Source: Lingula anatina (lineage: Eukaryota > Animalia > Brachiopoda). Taken from it: a stretch of DNA of 64,000 nucleotides. Under the pieces are notes generated by a model. The model was not told the origin of the DNA, ran no database searches, and was given only the letters and a program-made list of their open reading frames with translations. The translations under genes were made by a program, and so were the position numbers. Location: NCBI GenBank assembly GCA_051362555.1, contig CM120640.1, forward strand, positions 9,424,001 through 9,488,000, given 5' to 3'. Shown here piece by piece: positions 5,030-64,000 of this stretch. Every line of letters starts with the position of its first letter. Position 1 is the first letter of the stretch.

Positions 5030-6559
5030 GACACAGAGTTTTGCTCTGTGTAAAATTGAGTATGCTTTGATTACCATAGGCTGAAATCAATCTAGAACCA
5101 AACCTTTATGCTGGATCCTAGAATCAATAAACTGTTTCATTGTGTAAAACTTCAGAACTTCAGAAAAGTGCATGTCATTCCAGCCTTACATTGTTCTGTA
5201 ATATAATGGAATACAATGGGATTTTTATATACTAGATAGTCAATATGAATAGGCCTACATAGACTGGGTTCAAGTTTTTATTTTATGCTCCTATTTATTT
5301 ATTTATTTATTTATTTTATTTTATTTTTTTTCATTTTTTTTTTTTTTTACTTGAACTGGATATGGGGATTCGCCCAATTTCAATCGTGGAATTCTCTAAT
5401 GTTGGCACCAGCAAAATAAAAGTAGTAATAATAAATAAGTAAATGATTTAATCTATTAGATTAAAAAAAGAATACCAAAGGAACTTTGTAGCTTTTAAAG
5501 GATAAGGTGGCTATGCATCAACTGTCAGTGTTTTTAGTACCACCAGCGTGTACGCTGGCGGTACTCATGGTTTTAGTCCCGACCCGTCTCGTCCGGCTCT
5601 GCCGGCTCCGCCGGCTCCGTTGGCTCCGCCGGCTCCGCGTACTGGCGCCGGATACAAGTCACCGTTACCGCTTCTCCTCCTAGACCGCAAGGACCCCTGT
5701 CCTCATCTCTTGGATTTAGGTCACATATAACCTCAACTTGAACCCCCAGGTTTTTTTGTCTCAGTCAGTGCATTAACCTGGGCGTGACGCTCGTTGAAAT
5801 GCACCCTTGTCAAAATTTCTGAAAATTCAATGCCAATTATCTACCCTATGGAAGGAATTATGGGAAAATTTTCTACAGACGGCTTTCCAAAAGTCATATG
5901 TGTAGATTTCAAATATGCCCTTGGATTTGACCTTTGACCTTTATTTCAAGGTCAAACGGGCCAAAATTTTCAAAAAAATGAAATTTTTTACAAAAAAAAT
6001 ATTATATGTGCTGTTATTCAGACACTACACAGACTTAACCAATGATTTTATTGGAAAATGTTACCCTTCAGGTCATCTTTCATCTGTGTGAATTTGGGGT
6101 CAATCGGTGCATTTTCACGGGTGTAGCGGCCATAAGATACCGAAACTGAAAACTGTCTCTAATTCGGGAACCGTTAATGCTAGAGACCCATTCTTTTTTG
6201 CATTTTGTAGAGCATGTAAAGCCCAACACTGGAGGTGGTCTCCGTTTTTTTGTATTCCATAAGGTTTTCGAGTTACGCTGTATCAAAAAGTACATATTGG
6301 TGGTGAAAGCAAAATGTGCAGTACGGTAATGGATAATAAATTTTGAACTCTGGAAAAATAAAACATAAAGCTTGGCAAAGCAGACAACTTGTGGTCAAAA
6401 ATGACATTATTTCATCAAATTTGAACTTCTGGAACTTCAAAGCACCTCCCATTTCAAGAATTTTTGACCAAAATGACCTTTTCTTTATTTTAATTAATTT
6501 TTTCTGTAGGAAATTTATGGCACATTAAGGTAACTCCGAAATTATAACATTTAGTCCCT

Positions 6560-9500
6560 TATATCTCTAAAACTGGCAGAGATAGGTCCATAGTTACTAT
6601 TGAAGTTGAATAGGAAGTCATATACTGGCAATCTTACTGTGACCTTGAAATTGACCTTTGACCTACTTTTCACCATAAATTGAACTTTGCAAATTTTGCC
6701 TCCCTTTTATCTCCAAAACTGGCAGAGATAGGTCCATAGTTACTATTGAAGTTGAATAGGAAGTCATATACTGGCAATCTAAATGTGACCTTAAAATTGA
6801 CCTTTGACCTACTTTTCACCATGAACTGAACTTTGCAAATTTTGCCTCCCTTTTATCTCCAAAACTGGCAGAGATAGGTCCATAGTTTCTATTGAACTTG
6901 AATATGAAGTCATATACTGGCAATTTAAATGTGACCTTGAAATTGACCTTTGACCTACTTTTCACCATGAACTGAACTTTGGAAAGTTTGCTTCCCTTTT
7001 ATCTCCAAAACTAGCAGAGATAGGTCCATAGTTACTATTGAAGTTGAATAGGAAGTCATAAACTGGCAATCTAAATGTGACCTTAAAATTGACCTTTGAC
7101 CTACTTTTCACCATGAACTGAACTCTGCTAATTTCTTTCTCTTTTAACTCCAAACCTGGCAGAGATAGGTCCATAGTTACTATTGAAGTTGAATAGGAGG
7201 TCATATATTGGCAATCTAAATGTGACCTTGAAATTGACCTTTGACCTACTTTTTATCATGAATTGAACTTTGCAAATTTTGGTTCCCTTTTATCTCCAAA
7301 ACTGGCAGAGATAGGTCCATAGTTACTATTGAACTTGAATAGGAAGTCATATACTGGCAATCTTACTGTGACCTTGAAATTGACCTTTGACCTACTTTTC
7401 ATCATGAACTGAACTTTGCAAATTTTGCTTCCCTTTTATCTCCAAAGTTACGCTGTATCAAAAAGTACATTTTGGTGGTTAAAGCAAAATGTGCAGTACG
7501 GTAATGGATAATAAATTTTGAACTCTGGAAAAATAAAACATAAGGCTTGGCAAAGCAGGCAACTTGTGGTCGAAAATGACATTATTTCATCAAATTTGAA
7601 CATCTGGAACTTCAGAGCACCTCCCATTTCAAGAGTTTTGACCAAAATGACCTTTTCTTTATTTTAATTAATTTTTTTCCGTAGGAAATTTATGGCACAT
7701 TATGGTAACTCCAAAATAATAACATTTAGTCCCTTATATCTCCAAAACTGGCAGAGATAAGTCCATAGTTACTATTGAAGTTGAATAGGAAGTCATGTAC
7801 TGGCAATCTTACTGTGACCTTGAAATTGACCTTTGACCTACTTTTCACCATGAACTGAACTTTGCAAATTTTGGTTCCCTTTTATCTCCAAAACTGGCAG
7901 AGATAGGTCCATAGTTACTATTGAAGATGAATAGGAAGTCATCACCCTGAGCTTCAGAGCTGACTTGACACTAATCTTTTCACTGTAGCCTATCTCCATC
8001 GTGTCAAGTAACCTCTGACCAGATTCGAGTGCCCCCGCCGCCCGCCAATCAAATTTAAAGCCCGCTCTCAATGACTCATTGAACGATCTAGCCAATGAAC
8101 GCGAACGAGTCAAAGCGCGCTTTGTTCAAATCCGGACCAATCAAAGATAAGGCTGAATATCAGGGACTTGCCGTAACCTGTGGGCAGCACGCAAAATACA
8201 TCATCCCTCAGTAGATAATGATGCAGGGCATCATACTGCTCTGGTTTCAATTCCGATATACTCCATGCTTTCTTTGTGTACGGTTATGCACTCAGAACCA
8301 CTCGGAACTACTCGGATGTCTCCGCACTCGACAATAACTATGTTGTTAGTATGGAGCTTGCGGAATCAGCCGAGGATTGCCGATTGACGATCAACCAATC
8401 AGCGTTTTCACCAAACTTTGGTGAAAAATTTTGAAACATGGATTCTATTGGCTTATATAAAATAGGTCAAACTATTTTCGTCAGAGGTTACTTGACACGA
8501 TGGAGATAGGCTACAGTGAAAAGGTTAGTGTCAAGTCAGCTCTGAAGCTCAGGGTGGAAGTCATATACTGGCAATCTAAATGTGACCTTGAAATTGACCT
8601 TTGACCTACTTTTTATCATGAATTGAACTTTGCAAATTTTGGTTCCCTTTTATCTCCAAAACTGGCAGAGATAGGTCCATAGTTACTATTGAACTTGAAT
8701 AGGAAGTCATATACTGGCAATCTTACTGTGACCTTGAAATTGACCTTTGACCTACTTTTCATCATGAACTGAACTTTGCAAATTTTGATTCCCTTTTATC
8801 TCCAAAGTTACGCTGTATCAAAAAGTACATTTTGGTGGTTAAAGCAAAATGTGCAGTACGGTAATGGATAATAAATTTTGAACTCCGGAAAAATAAAACA
8901 TAAGGCTTGGCAAAGCAGGCAACTTGTGGTCGAAAATGACATTATTTCATCAAATTTGAACATCTGGAACTTCAGAGCACCTCCCATTTCAAGAATTTTG
9001 ACCAAAATGACCTTTTCTTTATTTTAATTAATTTTTTCCGTAGGAAATTTATGGCACATTATGGTAACTCCAAAATTATAACATTTAGTCCCTTATATCT
9101 CCAAAACTGGCAGAGTCAAGTCCATAGTTACTATTGAAGTTGAATAGGAAGTCATGTACTGGCAATCTTACTGTGACCTTGAAATTGACCTTTGACCTAC
9201 TTTTCACCATGAACTGAACTTTGCAAATTTTGCCTCCCTTTTATCTCCAAAACTGGCAGAGATAGGTCCATAGTTTCTATTGAACTTGAATATGAAGTCA
9301 TATACTGGCAATTTAAATGTGACCTTGAAATTGACCTTTGACCTACTTTTCACCATGAACTAAACTTTGCAAATTTTGCTTCCCTTTTATCTCCAAAAGT
9401 AGCAGAGATAGGTCCATAGTTACTATTGAAGTTGAATAGGAAGTCATATACTGGCAATCTAAGTGTGACCTTGAAATTGACCTTTGACCTACTTTTCACC

Positions 9501-9650
9501 ATGAACTGAACTCTGCTAATTTCTTTCTCTTTTAACTCCAAACCTGGCAGAGATAGGTCCATAGTTACTATTGAAGTTGAATAGGAAGTCATATACTGGC
9601 AATTTACTGTGACCTTGAAATTGACCTTTGACCTACCTTACGATGAACTT
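6560..9650. repeat. 146-bp tandem repeat array (about 13 units in blocks of 6+3+4) interrupted by two re-duplicated ~300-bp flank segments and a MITE
   Basis: The GAAGTCAT/TGACCTTTGACCT motifs recur every 146 nt; segment GTTACGCTGTATCAAAAAG... recurs at ~6272, 7446 and 8806. Confidence 0.95.
7943..8556. mobile_element. 614-bp MITE with 77-bp TIRs and 8-bp TSD (hAT- or P-like), nested in the satellite array
   Basis: TIRs 7943-8019 and 8480-8556 match at 76/77 nt and start with CACCCTGAG; GAAGTCAT is duplicated at 7935-7942 and 8557-8564. Confidence 0.93.
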
Positions 9651-28765: not shown

Positions 28766-37361
<8,596 letters not shown>

Positions 37362-56716: not shown

Positions 56717-58846
56717 CTACTTAAGAGTTCAGGATTTGGTTCCTTCATTTTGTTCCAATTTTAATGGTATATTTAAACGTCATTTCAGTCAGTTTACCTA
56801 GTTAAAGAGAAGAATTAATTGGTATTCCACATATTACTTTAAATTTGTAATTGGCTCTACTCTAGATGATAAATATCCCTGGTTTAAATAAAATATGAAG
56901 CCACATATATTGGTGTATCCGTTTGAGATTTAATAAAGCAATTACCAAGATGCATTTTAGTAAATTAAGTATTACCGATGCAGCATTTTGAAAAAAATAT
57001 TGAGAAAATAACGATCGTTAAAACCGTTCTTGAGTTCCAAGTTTCACTTTTTGAGTCAATCTCTATATGGAGATAAAAGCGATTTTTAATTCCAATTTTA
57101 AAATGGCTAAAATTTCCAAGAAAAGTTTTCACTGTATAACATTCTTGGGCCTTAAAATACTTCGTTGCATTGATCTCTGTTATGTGGTATTATTGTACGG
57201 AGGTGTGGAATAAGATCTGATTGTCATGAAATTGTTCATTACTCTTGCTTTACTGAAGTAAATATGACCCGTTTTGATTGATTTTTTCTTATACCGCAAT
57301 ACTTATCAAACTTAAAGTGGAGTGAATTAAGGCGTAAGGTACATATTTTACGTTATTTATTTGTTGGAGGAAATGTATACAAAAGAAAACCAGCCATTAT
57401 GTGTAAACCGACACGTCTTTGTATATACTGATTTCTGCTTTTATTTCTAATGGAGGGCACGTCCTCAAACACCATGAAATGTAGTAATTCTCACCATTCC
57501 ATGGTGTTTTAAGAATATAACTTAATAAAGTTTACAGATGCTATATATATATATATATATATTACTGAAATGCGTTAGCTACTACCTTACTCGACAATTT
57601 CAACTAATCGCAAGACTTTCGACCCTGCACTTTATTTTTCGCATCTTTAGAAGTTTGCAACGCAAATGTTCTTACTTTGTTACTTAAAACGGCGGGGTTT
57701 TGTTAGGAAATGTCTTTTTCAGTGTTTTTGACATAATGAAGTCGTTGGTTTTGATTTCAAAGGAGACTTGAATGACAATAGTCACAAAAATCAAGGGCGT
57801 TTATTATCATCTGATCAAAGTGCGAGTCATTTTGCGAACCATTCAATGATTTCTGCACATTTTGTAACCACAACGCAATTACTTTATCCCTTAGTTTTTA
57901 TTTCTGGTTCTAAAGATTTTTCTTTAGCAAATTATGCTGGAAAGATACGCGTTTTCCATTACTGCCTACGTATATGCCTCCTGCTTGGAGAAAATGAAGT
58001 TGAATGTTTTAGCCCAGCGCACACTGAAACGAAGGAAGGAAAGCTTATTTTGGAGCGTTGAATATATAGTATTGGGTCAAAAAAAGCAGGTTTATCTTGG
58101 GTTTGAGGAGATTTAAATACTGGTCTGTGACTATCTTTCTACTGAAGTTTTTTTTTTTCGTAAAACGAGACCTGAGAGGAAAGTCGAAAAAAAAAAGAAT
58201 TTTAATGAAAGATTCCCAACAGAAAAGACCAAGTTGTTATTTCACAAGGTCTGAACCTAACAGAAGTTATGGCTGGAAAGCTCATTTGTCAGTATAAAAA
58301 GTTAGTAGAATAAAATTAGTCGAAATATGGCCTTTGTTATCCCGCAGAGAGAATGCTCCGATTTGGACTGGCAGTTGCAATAAGAAATGGTCCATACATA
58401 ACGGAGGCGCCTTGTGTGAGCTAGAATAGTTGCATATTGATAAAATGTATCGTTCAACACCAGTGTCGCGAGATTTGTGGCTCAGCTTGTAGTTTGCATC
58501 GTGCGCTGGTCTCAAAAACTTGCATCACTACAGTTCGGGGTGACATAAGTGACCCTGGTACTGAAAATCCTGCTGCCTTGGCTAACCTCCAGTACGGTGT
58601 CAACCTGATCGACAAAACAAAAAGCCACAGATAACTGACCTGGAACGGGCCCGTCGGCATGTTGAAAATCACTAGCTTTGCGACAACTTACTGTTGAAAC
58701 CGTACACTGTAGTTCTTGATTTCGGCATGTTTTGGAGCTTAGTTAGTGAAAAAAAAGAAGTGTTGAAATTATTCGAATACAAGGGCCCGTTAGTTACAAT
58801 GTATGGTGAACAGTATGTGCGCGCTGTGGACACAAAAGACTTGAAA

Positions 58847-60035
58847 ATGTGGAAGCTAATAGTTACATTTCTAGTCGTCGCTGCCTTTTTCCATGGAAAT
58901 TCAGGAGCAAGGTTTGTTGAACACTTTTTTCGCCGAAGACTTTCAGTGAATCGGGAATTTTCTATATACAAATCAAATATGTTAGTGAATAGTGAATATT
59001 GTCTCGTTCATGACGGGTCCTTTCGTTTGTCAGATAATCAGTGGCAGACCAGTAATATTGTTAGACGAGCTCGGTCCGTATTACTTCTCATTTGCTTCGT
59101 TGAACAAACACCACTTTTGAGAATATAAAATTATATTGGTATTTCCAATGCTGACAGGTTTTTCTACATTAATATTTTTTATACATATGTTGAAATTATG
59201 AAAATGGTTGTGATAAACATGACTGGATCAAATACAGGAGAAGTCGTTTAGAAGCTGTTTTCATAATTAAATTCGATCAATTCTACCTCGAAATCAGTCG
59301 GCGTAGAGGGAATATAAGAGTTTATATAAAACACAAATAAAAATATTTCGTTACGTCACGAAGTGCACTTAAGCAATACAAAGTTAGTGTGTCCGTAACT
59401 ACCAGATTGCACTGACCAAACCACGGGTTCGTTGTGATATTCCGGAGTTTCCAAGGTATATTTTATATTTCTCGTGGATTTTGTCTCTTTTGGACCTTCT
59501 TCAGACTTATCGGACTCGTCCAGTGAAGAACAATTCTGATACAGTCCAAGTTACCGTAGATGTTGTCTTGCTGCACGTCAATTCTCTTGATGTTAACTCA
59601 CAAGTCTTGTCAGTTAACGCGTATCATCGTATGGTAGGGGAAATGTGTCTGGTGTCTAGTAATAACATGAAAACAATTAGAAAAAAGGTCCGTTTTAACT
59701 AGTTATGATGTTAGTCGAGCCACTGAAAATTCGAGCAATGAAAAAAGTGAAAGTGTATATTGTCCCAGCATCCATTCCGTGAAAAATATGTGCCAGGTAT
59801 TAATTTTTTTTATTGTCTACAATTTAAGAAATAAATTTGGTTTAAATTCACCAGTGGGTCCAAAGTAGATGTGTATTTGCCATCACCTCCAATCACGACC
59901 AAATGGAAACATTTTTATAATATGATACATTTTTAGGGCAATATGTAAATGTGTAATGCCTCTGTGAGATATACTGAGATATTCTTTTTACGAATTTTGG
60001 CAGTGTGTGTGTGTGTGTGTGTGCGTGCGTGCATG

Positions 60036-60075
<40 letters not shown>

Positions 60076-61207
60076 GGGGTGCAAAAGGGAGCTGTAGGCA
60101 CCATCTAGTTATGTATCTGTTAATGGTTCTAGAGCTGGCGTGACCGGGATCTGGTGTGGGATCCTCAGTTCAGAGGAGGAGTGCGGAGGATGCATGTAAT
60201 GTCCTCACTTATTTGGCTCCCAGACATTGTGCTGCTGAATCTGTGAGTTGATTTCATATATTCACGTTCATTTTCCTTGATCTTCTTGTATATATGTTTG
60301 TTTGTTTATCTATTAATTAGTTAATTTACTTTTTTTAATGAGAAAAAAGGTCATAATTGCGCTACCAGTGTGCAGTGGATACCGGACTTGTTAATGTTGT
60401 ATTTTCATGTTTTGATGAAAAGTACATATACATTGGTAGCGTTGATGTCAGCTATTTAATTATGCTGTGTTTCAGTCGCGGTGCCAGTAAGCTGCTGTTG
60501 GACCCGAGAGCAGTAGTATCCCATGACGGCACGGTGGTCTGGATACCTGTATACCAGCACAGGTAAAACTGGACATAATGGAGTCACTTCATGATTTCCA
60601 TATTTTTTAATATTTGTTCAAATGAACAGCTCTAATTTCTTTGTTTTTGGAAATTTCTGCTGGGCCAGTAACTTAATTCTGCTTTGCAAACGTAGGCATA
60701 AGACCATTGCACCATATGTTCATCAAAATATAACGAGACAATTACAAGCCCCCAGGGTGATTGTTGAATGCATAGGTCTTGTGTTGTCAAACCGTTTCGA
60801 AAAGAATATCATAGATCATAGATCCTAGACACCATATGATCTGATTTTATTCCTGTTTCAGCGCTCATTGTAATACTGATCTTGGGCGTTACAGTCAGGA
60901 GTGCAACCTCAAATTTGGATCATGGTCGTATAATCAGAAGGAAATAAACCTTGCCTACGGGGCTCAGAAAATGGATCTAAGCAACTTGGAGCCAAATCGG
61001 GACTGGGCTGTACAATATACTGCAGTGAAACGAAATGCGATTTCTTATAGTTGTTGTCCTGGTGAGATTTTCGTCGATTTGACTTATTCCTTGACATTAC
61101 GGATGAAGAAAAACACCTCATCAGCCCTGACAGCCAGTTCTGGATTTACTGACAGACCTTTTGTAGTCATATTTGTAGTGTCTTTGATTGTTGGTATTAT
61201 GGTTTAA
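58847..61207 (+). CDS. Acetylcholine-binding-protein-like / nAChR alpha-type ligand-binding domain with no TM1-TM4 and a C-terminal GPI-like signal; exons 58847-~58911(?), 59505-59633, 60133-60242, 60476-60562, 60862-61207
   Basis: Signal peptide MWKLIVTFLVVAAFFHGNSG; RPVKNNSDTVQV, SWRDRDLVWDP, IWLPDIVLLN, VSHDGTVVWIP, C-x10-C-NLKFGSWSY, YSCCPGEIFVDLTYSLTLR, then a S/A/G-rich spacer and 15 hydrophobic residues before the stop. The junction between the signal exon and exon 2 is unresolved (the obvious donor is phase 2, the obvious acceptor phase 0). Confidence 0.85.
60003..60072. repeat. Compound (GT)n microsatellite
   Basis: GT runs interrupted by gcgtgcgtgcatgcat. Confidence 0.95.
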
Positions 61208-61520
61208 CAATTATTCCCCCCCCCCCCATCATTAATTACGCTAACGATTTCAATCAGCCTATTATTAAATTTCACTTTTTTATTTAAAAATTCAAAATTT
61301 TGGATTTTTCTATCAGCATCTCATTATTGGACACGTGCACTTATTTAATTTTTAAATATTTTTCTTTCTTTCTTTCTTTCTTTCTTTCTTTATTTATTTA
61401 CTTGCATTATGGATTTTTTTATTTCATGTATTAATTTTTGCTCCTGTACTCTTCATTCTAAAAAATACATGTACTTATACATCTAGCTAAATGAGGTTTA
61501 TAACTATGTTTTGGGGTAAC

Positions 61521-61718: not shown

Positions 61719-63026
61719 CTAGCGAAACCCTATGGCCACGCCCGTTGCACGCGCCCACTTATCACTACTGGTATAGGCACCACATCCTCCAAAGTGGAGT
61801 TCGGTGAAGAAGAAAAACTCGTTAGGCATCGTGCGTCCAGATGGCACTGGCTTGGCGGAGTTGAGCCATGCGCCATAGAAATTGGCTCCAATGCCAGAGC
61901 CTCCATAGGAACTTGGTGGCACTTCACGATGATTTGGAAAGAGAGCGAAGTAACTGGCCGGGTTACTGCCGCAATGGTTGAACGTGATTGCTCTACCGTT
62001 GCTTCTTATACCTTGAAATTTGAAACTCGGGTTGTTAGCTATATTTGCTGGCAGGAATCCCAGAAATAATTTCGGCCCCATTGCCCTATTAACAGGGTTC
62101 GTGTATCCCAAATGTGAGTTGATCTGAACTGAAAGGGGGGTGGAGGCATATCGCTGTAACTGTCGCAGGACGGTGAACGGCTGCCTACCATTGTCGTACG
62201 AAATACGAAGCAACACGTGGGATTTATCAGTGAAAATGCTGGCCAGGTTAAGATTAGTACCCGTCACGATCGCCTGTCGTGAAAGAAAAGTATACCCTCC
62301 CCCGTTGATTCCCATCTCACAGTAAACACGTTGGTAGCCTGTGTTGGTGAGGATAGCGTATTCCCCGCCTGCAGCGTTTGGGTTCGCGTTAAGGATAGCC
62401 TTGCATGAAGTATATGCCTCTACGGAACGAAAAAAAGTTATTTTAAGTTTAATATAAGTCAAGTTCTCACTCTTTTTAAACTGGAACATTTACAGTTTTT
62501 ATACCAAAATCGAGCCGTAACACACGTCAACACACAACCTGTACTTATCAATAATTCAAAGTCTGGGGCATATTGGTGGTGGGGGAGTTTTGAGGGGCTG
62601 TGAGGGAGGGAAGGGGGGTGAATTGAATAAGTGCAGTAGACAAGAGAAAAGAAATATCCTGATATACCTATAAATGTGTACCTGCTCAAATTAAGTCTAT
62701 GATTATTTTAATATTTGATTTTGAATGACCATTAAACTGGACGCAATTAAGTTGTTAATCTGATAGTTTGAAGTTTGGGAGTTTGAAAATCAACAAGATG
62801 GGATGCCCTAGCTCAAATGTAGTTAGTAAGAAATGTATTCAGGACCCTCGAAAAAAATGACTTTTGCACCAAAATTCCGTACACCAGTAAAAAATAAGAT
62901 TGGTACTGGTAGTGACGCCAAGGTTGAGAGAGAGAGAGAGAGGGACTTACCCTGCTTATCCGTTCCATAACTTCCCTCAGAGAAATGAGTCAAGAGCGAG
63001 GCTACAATTAAACCCGAAAATAACAT
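61719..63026 (-). CDS. Secreted 258-aa protein with fibrinogen/intelectin-like N-terminal motif; exons 63026-62951 and 62419-61719
   Basis: Signal peptide MLFSGLIVASLLTHFSEG; phase-1 GT-AG intron; SCKAIL...GEYAI...VYCEMGINGGGYT matches the FReD-type SC...G.Y.I...VYCDM...GGGWT signature. Confidence 0.85.
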
Positions 63027-63077
63027 TCTCGTCTGCTGTCAGGAGAACTGACATGGTAACGTTGCATAATTAATTCC

Positions 63078-63114: not shown

Positions 63115-64000
63115 AATTCACGTTTCCCGTCAATTTTCATAAAGGAAATTAATTCATTTACCACGGAAATGAGTGTTCTTGTCCGACCGTGGAAAGTGGG
63201 TGGGTGTAGCATAGGGTAACAAAACTAACATTTATACCCAGTGCAGTGTGGATGTATGATCAACCGGTTATATGTATATGTCGCTTGGCTTCGGCCGAAG
63301 AGATGACCAATTTAACGTACGACCTAGAAATGTCGATCACTCACCTGTTAAGAGCACAGAACGCCTGACCTTGATATCTCAGAACACGGAGAAAACGACA
63401 TTGTACGTCAAATTATGAAATCAATTAACAAAATTGCAAACTTAAATCACGTTTCCGGTTACTGTCTTATAATGGAAGTTAAGTATTTTACAAGGGAAAA
63501 TGAGTATTTTTAGATTCTGGTTCGACGGTTGGGTTGGGGGGGGGGGGGAGTGGACATAGGTTAATATTTATATACCAATTGTAAAATTACTGTTGTATCA
63601 TCCAGTTACATGCACATGTCACTTGACCTCGCCTTAAGAAATGATCAGTTTATTGTCAGATTAAAAATGTGAATCACTCGCCTGTATTGAAGAGCGAAAT
63701 CCGCCCGACCTCGAAATCCCATATATCCGGGTTACAGAGAAAACACCATACCGCGTTAATTATAAAATCAATTTACAAACTGCAAACTTAAATCACGTTT
63801 CTGTTTCTGTTTTATAATGGAAATTAAGTCATTTACAATGGAAATTAGTGTATTTTTGGTGTTGGTTCGACCGTTGGGGGGGGGGGGGGGGGGAGGGGGA
63901 GCATGTAGAGGGTCTATACGGTATAGATACCCACTGTACAATGAGTGTATGATCAGCTTGCTGCATGTGCACATGTCACTTCGACCGAAGAAATGATCAT
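63115..64000. repeat. Diverged ~330-350-bp tandem repeat, about 3 copies (last one runs off the window)
   Basis: TCACGTTTC..., GGAA(A/G)TTAA, CGAC(C/G)GT+G-run, ATGTC(A/G)CTT and AAGA(A/G)ATGA recur in the same order from ~63115, ~63445 and ~63791. Confidence 0.8.

Follow-up and report, generated by a model that had tools for sequence, protein, structure and literature searches.

Can an animal keep an acetylcholine-binding protein (AChBP) on the surface of its cells? AChBPs are the usual structural substitutes for nicotinic receptors; they have been described as water-soluble, secreted pentamers, and what they do in the living animal is under debate (Saur, 2012, PMC3423370; spider study, PMC4569296). 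The question is raised by a gene of the brachiopod Lingula anatina, found in a stretch of 64,000 nucleotides that was analysed as a whole and is called the window here (GCA_051362555.1, contig CM120640.1, positions 9,424,001 to 9,488,000). An earlier note, made from the letters of this stretch, had proposed that the gene joins a signal peptide to a complete extracellular domain (ECD) of the Cys-loop receptor type and ends in a GPI-anchor signal at the point where a receptor enters its first transmembrane (TM) segment. Its central proposal, a channel-less, AChBP-like protein with a predicted GPI-type tail, was strengthened by RNA, two RefSeq models, the loss of gating motifs, a failed test for a remnant of M1 and five further genes of like design.

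Gene structure and transcription

A search with the last exon recovered a 255-residue L. anatina protein (P0001, XP_013397242.1; 97% identity), whose residue numbering is used for the window protein. A second model of this cluster, P0003 (XP_013379011.1, 271 residues), is 100% identical to the window over exons 3 and 5. Both models are intact, differ from each other at three residues only and end in the tail read from the window; the RefSeq name 'alpha-6(-like)' that both carry is an automatic best-hit label. When the two proteins were aligned to the window by tblastn (E<1e-8), the five coding exons of Table 1 were matched and nothing else. Exons 3 and 4 and the coding part of exon 5 have AG/GT ends, and the donor after 58911 is phase 2 and supported by RNA. 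In-frame upstream ATGs lie within the 5' UTR at 58727 and 58799, the latter being the start in XP_013379011.1. The tail reads exactly as the earlier note had quoted it, and no TM exons were seen between the stop codon (61205-61207) and the convergent open reading frame ending at 61719, in agreement with that note's statement on TM1-TM4.

Between 6 and 30% of each RNA run was searched, and three of the seven runs tried gave zero reads at the gene. Exons 1-2 received 3 reads in run X1, 4 in X2, 12 in X3 and 0 in X9, with 0 in the introns, and exons 3-5 received 7 in X1, 2 in X7 and 0 in both X4 and X8. The first mates of X1-X3 all lie on the - strand, the pattern that most stranded libraries give when the + strand is transcribed. 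In X3, four reads carry the junction 59633->60133, and with it the M|SW boundary that had been assigned to the 110-nt exon; an exon of 110 nt is conserved in nAChR genes. At the 3' end, where a transcript closing after the tail had been expected, reads of X1 cross the stop codon and reach about 61336. The RNA is thin: no joint is listed among exons 3, 4 and 5, and no single + strand read covers both the tail and the ECD portion of exon 5. The best-scoring donor of the region is an internal GT at 61062, inside loop C, from which splicing to TM exons outside the window had been considered. The sole read pair spanning this GT, from X7, runs through it unbroken, but its orientation is opposite to that of X1, so that it supports the uninterrupted frame weakly, and a minor isoform spliced at 61062 may exist. 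The window gene is real, spliced and weakly expressed.

The convergent neighbour (61719-62421, - strand) appears as a single large exon, with upstream exons likely at about 62950-63040. It gave no Pfam match; over its first 47 residues it shows a weak likeness to the N-terminal subdomain found in lectins of the fibrinogen-like type (E 0.015 for the intelectin XEEL). A dispersed repeat is present in several intergenic copies in both orientations (6080-9640 and 32660-34160), and two further blocks are similar to it (63290-63620 and 63660-63990). The other genes, between 1700 and 56700, are presumably an isochorismatase-domain gene, a xanthine dehydrogenase/aldehyde oxidase, a TSSC4-like gene, an actin-like 6 (BAF53) gene, a ZIP zinc transporter and a leucine-rich/F-box-like gene.

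Table 1. Features of the window gene, in positions of the window.
Feature	Position	Strand	Basis
5' UTR, start approximate	58650..58846	+	RNA depth from bin 58650-58699
Exon 1, predicted signal peptide	58847..58911	+	RNA depth stops at 58911 and the joint starts there; AlphaFold helix 2-16
Missing exon-2 acceptor and first 18 coding bases, just before 59492	59480..59504	+	RNA, RefSeq proteins, window search
Exon 2, incomplete: last part of helix alpha1, beta1-beta2, loop D (Tyr72)	59492..59633	+	Pfam, tblastn, RNA
Exon 3, 110 nt: WxPD motif, loop A (Leu110 for Tyr93)	60133..60242	+	Pfam, RNA, tblastn
Exon 4, 87 nt: loop E region	60476..60562	+	Splice ends, RNA, tblastn
Exon 5, coding: Cys loop, loops B, F and C, beta10, linker, hydrophobic tail, stop	60862..61207	+	Pfam, RNA, tblastn
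Shortened Cys loop C144-x10-C155, without FPF	60869..60904	+	Sequence comparison
Loop C: Tyr203, vicinal Cys205-Cys206, Phe211; holds GT 61062	61046..61072	+	Sequence comparison
Polar Ser/Ala/Thr linker, predicted omega region and spacer	61103..61156	+	Rule-based scan
16-residue uncharged C-terminal block, mean KD 2.95, nothing after: predicted GPI-signal tail	61157..61204	+	
3' UTR in RNA; possible poly(A) signals 61264, 61548, 61558	61208..61336	+	RNA

The frame at exon 2

An in-frame junction to the signal exon, whose absence the earlier note had listed as a sign of a pseudogene, is lacking in the assembled copy but is intact in RNA of other animals. The only good acceptor in the window lies at 59504 and is phase 0; joined to 58911, it leads to a stop at codon 29. 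In two reads of X3, 58911 and 59492 are separated by 18 additional bases, and the residues that match these bases, in helix alpha1, are present in both RefSeq proteins. The 18 bases were sought across the window and are absent (the best match has 4 mismatches), and no AG precedes 59492 in the window. Since the bases occur in the reads and in the RefSeq proteins, are absent from the window and have no AG to accompany them, the simplest reading is that the assembled copy has lost the acceptor together with 18 coding bases. As it stands, this copy is frameshifted at exon 2, either by an assembly error or as a null allele. The transcript is in frame in other Lingula animals. The heterozygosity of the Lingula genome is given as 1.6% (PMC4595640). 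Two other explanations were tried. Donors at 58916 and 58946 would give exon 1 an open frame with a helix-like N-terminus and were ruled out by the RNA depth, which stops at 58911. Micro-exons within intron 1, as an origin of the 18 bases, were not found in the window.

The ligand-binding domain

The Pfam family Neur_chan_LBD (PF02931) was matched by three of the four LBD exon frames and by the whole RefSeq protein (E 2.5e-42; profile positions 1-213 of 216, residues 23-221), and Pfam gave no match to Neur_chan_memb in the RefSeq protein. An AlphaFold model built from a 25-row alignment had a pLDDT of 89.9, with 52-68 in the tail, and its top Foldseek matches were nAChR ECDs (E 2e-23; TM 0.9 by target length, the targets being isolated ECDs). 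The signal peptide is predicted, from sequence and model, as a hydrophobic N-terminal helix. The single 19-mer with KD>=1.6 lies at the C-terminus, and there is no internal TM segment. The signal peptide and the complete Cys-loop ECD of the earlier note thus stand, on a signal exon from 58847 and the Pfam LBD, but the domain is not a canonical one.

The binding and gating residues were read by eye from alignments with solved alpha subunits and from the alignment A2, with positions in Torpedo/alpha1 numbering. Trp149 of loop B (Trp162), Tyr190 (Tyr203) and Cys192-193 (Cys205-206) of loop C are kept. Aromatic residues are found at Tyr198 (Phe211) and in loop D, and the loop A position Tyr93 is occupied by Leu. 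The gating contacts are gone, the Cys loop being C-x10-C without FPF, a motif that couples to the membrane, the equivalent of Glu45 being Val and that of the pre-M1 Arg209 being Met. In A2, loop A is non-aromatic in three of five tailed genes (Leu, Lys, Val), whereas Tyr or Phe is found in 19 of 19 untailed ones (again by eye), hinting at an altered ligand preference across the tailed genes. With the loop A Tyr lost, the ligand need not be acetylcholine.

Among 163 proteins, 134 single complete ECDs were scored, 97 with a canonical Cys loop and 37 without. Of the latter rows, which include near-duplicates and two fragments, 32 have 43 residues or fewer after the ECD. A short loop goes with the loss of the channel, which argues against the window gene being a receptor model that was clipped recently. 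Judged from its sequence, the window protein is a long-diverged, channel-less protein of the AChBP type.

The C-terminal tail

The tail comprises 34 residues past the ECD and consists of a polar Ser/Ala/Thr linker with small-residue triplets, a short spacer and a hydrophobic end. In the GPI pattern described in the PredGPI paper, a linker of 11 residues is followed by small residues at positions omega-1 through omega+2, by a spacer that runs as far as omega+9 and by hydrophobic residues up to the end (PMC2571997). Asn225, Ser227, Ala232 and Ser233 (61136) were returned as omega candidates, with the best fit at Ser233, by a hand rule run without a specificity control, which passes any Ser/Ala-rich linker. 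By this rule, Ser233 (ASSG) has the geometry of the pattern, with the spacer FTDR, a hydrophobic block from omega+7/8 and 22 residues after omega. The tail is predicted to be a well-formed GPI-type signal.

Over its most hydrophobic 19 residues the tail has a mean KD of 2.03, which is sufficient for a TM call. In canonical receptors, however, the first hydrophobic block lies a median of 6 residues after the ECD (within 14 in 92 of 93), as against 17 in the window protein. A profile of M1 was built from 65 of 93 M1 segments, 28 being dropped as they could not be anchored. Against this profile the tail scored -18.4, a value reached by 951 of 2000 shuffles; the median was 30.9 for true M1 segments and -15.8 for M4 controls. 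A score at the level of shuffled sequence indicates that the M1 signature is gone.

Relatives with the same architecture

The hit list held 5328 entries, of which the best 150 were examined; no close orthologue was found among these 150, and the next best was at most 38% identical. Three of the 149 other listed hits share this design, having a short loop, a polar linker and a hydrophobic block at the end, and two more cases were added by follow-up. These five genes are P0036 of the tubeworm Ridgeia piscesae (KAK2187458.1), P0140 of the chiton Liolophura sinensis (XP_064598611.1), a second Lingula gene, P0158 (XP_013380740.1), and P0041 and P0163. In the seven tailed rows, which represent six genes, the block lies 15-22 residues after the ECD and the loops have 8-10 residues, all without FPF. 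By the hand rule, omega-type small residues occur at GPI distance in five of the six genes, P0140 having none. P0163, P0041 and P0036 are 26-34% identical, form one clade (support 89-90) and share D-[NS]-[ASG]-[AS] aligned at the predicted cut. The 1327-base contig of P0163 contains one unbroken open reading frame with signal peptide, tail and stop, and 430 bases downstream. Its database entry begins at an internal Met; further upstream in the same frame, the contig has an ATG that opens a signal peptide (L001 62-170). As predicted from these proteins, the tail design is found in at least three phyla.

The second Lingula gene has two RefSeq isoforms. Isoform X1 (XP_013380740.1) is tailed, and isoform X2 (XP_013380741.1, P0120) ends five residues past the ECD, so that a switch between an anchored and a secreted form is predicted for this gene. 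It retains the loop A Tyr and a loop D Trp.

The search for orthologues sharing the tail, as proposed in the earlier note, thus yielded five distant genes but no close orthologue, and trees of 124 and 46 ECDs gave the window gene no settled position. The AU test (p 0.678) does not reject a single origin of the six tailed genes, nor does it establish one; the constrained tree scored 16 log-units better than the tree from a quick free search. Word-index homologue searches, which have low sensitivity, gave nothing beyond the Lingula cluster and a single nematode receptor, and three proteins for the tailed alignment. The nearest clusters in the ESM Atlas were LBD-only families of molluscs and arthropods (score 0.86-0.89), which serve as leads only.

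No hydrophobic segment ends 25 of the 32 short-tailed non-canonical ECD rows. Receptor names are attached to many soluble AChBP-like proteins in the databases, from abalone, scallop, oyster, copepod and others, for example P0024, P0029, P0047, P0066, P0094, P0096, P0097, P0099 and P0107. AChBP-type proteins look far commoner than described. Non-canonical Cys loops also occur in P0104, P0105 (scorpion), P0073 and P0125, which are full-length or nearly so and have TM domains; C-x10-C without FPF is found in P0104 and P0105, so channel-less proteins are not alone in having a short loop.

Proposed mechanism and alternative explanations

The reading proposed here, to which an even chance is given, is that the gene encodes a GPI-tethered ligand-binding oligomer that would bind at the cell surface without conducting. 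The low-level spliced transcript, with its stop codon and 3' UTR right after the tail and no channel exons, would yield a protein that has lost its gating contacts and retains the loop B Trp, the loop C Tyr, the vicinal Cys-Cys pair and an aromatic loop D. The signal peptide would lead this protein to the ER, where GPI transamidase would cut near Ser233 (or Ser227/Ala232). As in the rest of the family, subunits would probably assemble into pentamers with pockets between them. In AChBP pentamers the five C-termini and the Cys loops mark one face (PMC3423370), so that anchors at the C-termini would give the pockets the orientation that they have in a receptor. Ligands that are small and cationic, such as acetylcholine, choline or toxins, could then be buffered or intercepted at the surface with no current, and a phospholipase could shed the protein. 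The loss of the loop A Tyr suggests that acetylcholine is bound less tightly or that the ligand is a different one.

The same protein, anchored by GPI or otherwise, could instead act on proteins or minerals, by co-assembly with or shielding of nAChR subunits or by control of shell mineral as in ACCBP, though this is unlikely. The distribution of loop A aromatics between tailed and untailed genes would suit such a role, an anchor would set the protein in the plane of real receptors, and ACCBP governs the crystallisation of calcium carbonate (PMC3423370). Against this, the binding residues of loops B, C and D are retained, and AChBPs of Biomphalaria are also described with one Tyr replaced by Phe, in loop A or in loop C (PMC3423370).

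That the tail is an uncleaved single TM anchor, possibly a drifted M1, in a type I membrane protein with no cytosolic tail, is judged rather improbable. Its hydropathy would allow this, AlphaFold places a helix at 242-254, the 'RPF' ahead of the block resembles pre-M1, and all 10 of the lophotrochozoans surveyed by Jiao and colleagues (2019, PMC6896357) have LBD-TM models. However, the block has only 16 uncharged residues with nothing after them and is preceded by a 17-residue polar linker with small-residue triplets; as M1, it scores no better than shuffles and lies below the median of the M4 controls.

Little credence is given to a pseudogene, a truncated receptor or an artefact of the gene model. 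The frameshift of the assembled copy, the low expression with its empty runs and the strong donor inside loop C would all be accounted for in this way, yet the frame is restored in RNA from other animals, the two RefSeq models are intact and only three residues apart, reads continue past the stop, and FPF is lost as in the soluble AChBP-type hits, unlike the 97 canonical ECDs. An ordinary secreted AChBP with an incidental hydrophobic tail, or one trimmed by proteolysis, would agree with the solubility of the described AChBPs and with the lack of a hydrophobic end in most short-tailed non-canonical ECD rows, but is scarcely credible given a linker, small residues and a hydrophobic block at equal spacing in six divergent genes.

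It is likely that animals have a surface-tethered form of AChBP. More tentatively, and with somewhat less than an even chance, the tailed genes, from a brachiopod, an annelid, a chiton and other marine animals, may represent an unrecognised lophotrochozoan class of AChBPs anchored by GPI. The class may have arisen once, and alternative splicing in it would toggle between a secreted and a tethered, sheddable pentamer that tunes cholinergic signalling or traps toxins. If true, the tethered form would take a third place, between the soluble AChBP and the channel, and, being bound to one cell surface, it would make function testable with cells, ligand and phospholipase release. Some mollusc and annelid 'LBD-TM' models dismissed as receptor fragments would also be complete genes.

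Comparison with known systems

The AChBPs of Lymnaea, Aplysia, Bulinus, Biomphalaria and Capitella and the spider CsAChBP share with the window protein the LBD-only design, a Cys loop of non-canonical length and the vicinal cysteines of loop C. The Cys loop is described as variable in AChBPs (PMC4569296), and the window protein likewise has a hydrophilic, variable Cys loop and a signal peptide and LBD with no channel. Aplysia AChBP chains were matched by phmmer with E 3e-23, and vertebrate alpha subunits scored higher (E 6e-34). AChBPs differ in being described as soluble, whereas the window protein has a GPI-like tail of 34 residues and no loop A Tyr. With the nAChR alpha subunits (alpha6, alpha2, alpha1, alpha9) it shares the ECD fold, the loop B Trp, YxCC in loop C and the 110-nt exon with M|SW; these subunits differ in having M1-M4 and a C-x13-C loop with FPF, as well as the Glu45 and Arg209 whose equivalents the window protein has lost.

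ACCBP of pearl oyster and abalone is likewise an AChBP-type lophotrochozoan protein of a shelled animal, a likeness drawn from description and not from sequence. It is a soluble di-pentamer that binds amorphous CaCO3 (PMC3423370), whereas the shell of Lingula is calcium phosphate. The LBD-TM models tabulated by Jiao and colleagues also combine an LBD with one predicted hydrophobic segment; Table 1 of that paper gives between 2 and 11 for each of 10 mollusc and annelid genomes and 0 for two cnidarians and two vertebrates (PMC6896357). The count was made by SMART only, and many may be truncated models. The terms 'GPI', 'AChBP' and 'Lingula' have 0 occurrences in the main text of that paper, and AChBP is not mentioned in the available text of MolluscaGenes (PMC13174522). 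As the earlier note had supposed, no natural GPI-anchored AChBP or nAChR ectodomain appeared among the entries and abstract openings listed by full-text searches of open-access PMC and bioRxiv. A GPI-tailed AChBP is apparently undescribed as such. A GPI-linked alpha1 ECD was reportedly engineered by West and colleagues in 1997.

Lynx1/Ly6 proteins and the GPI-anchored forms of cholinesterase are also GPI-tethered and cholinergic, and AChE occurs in anchored and soluble splice forms. Their folds differ from that of the window protein, being three-finger and alpha/beta hydrolase folds respectively. In contrast to both, what would be tethered in Lingula is the receptor's own ligand-binding domain.
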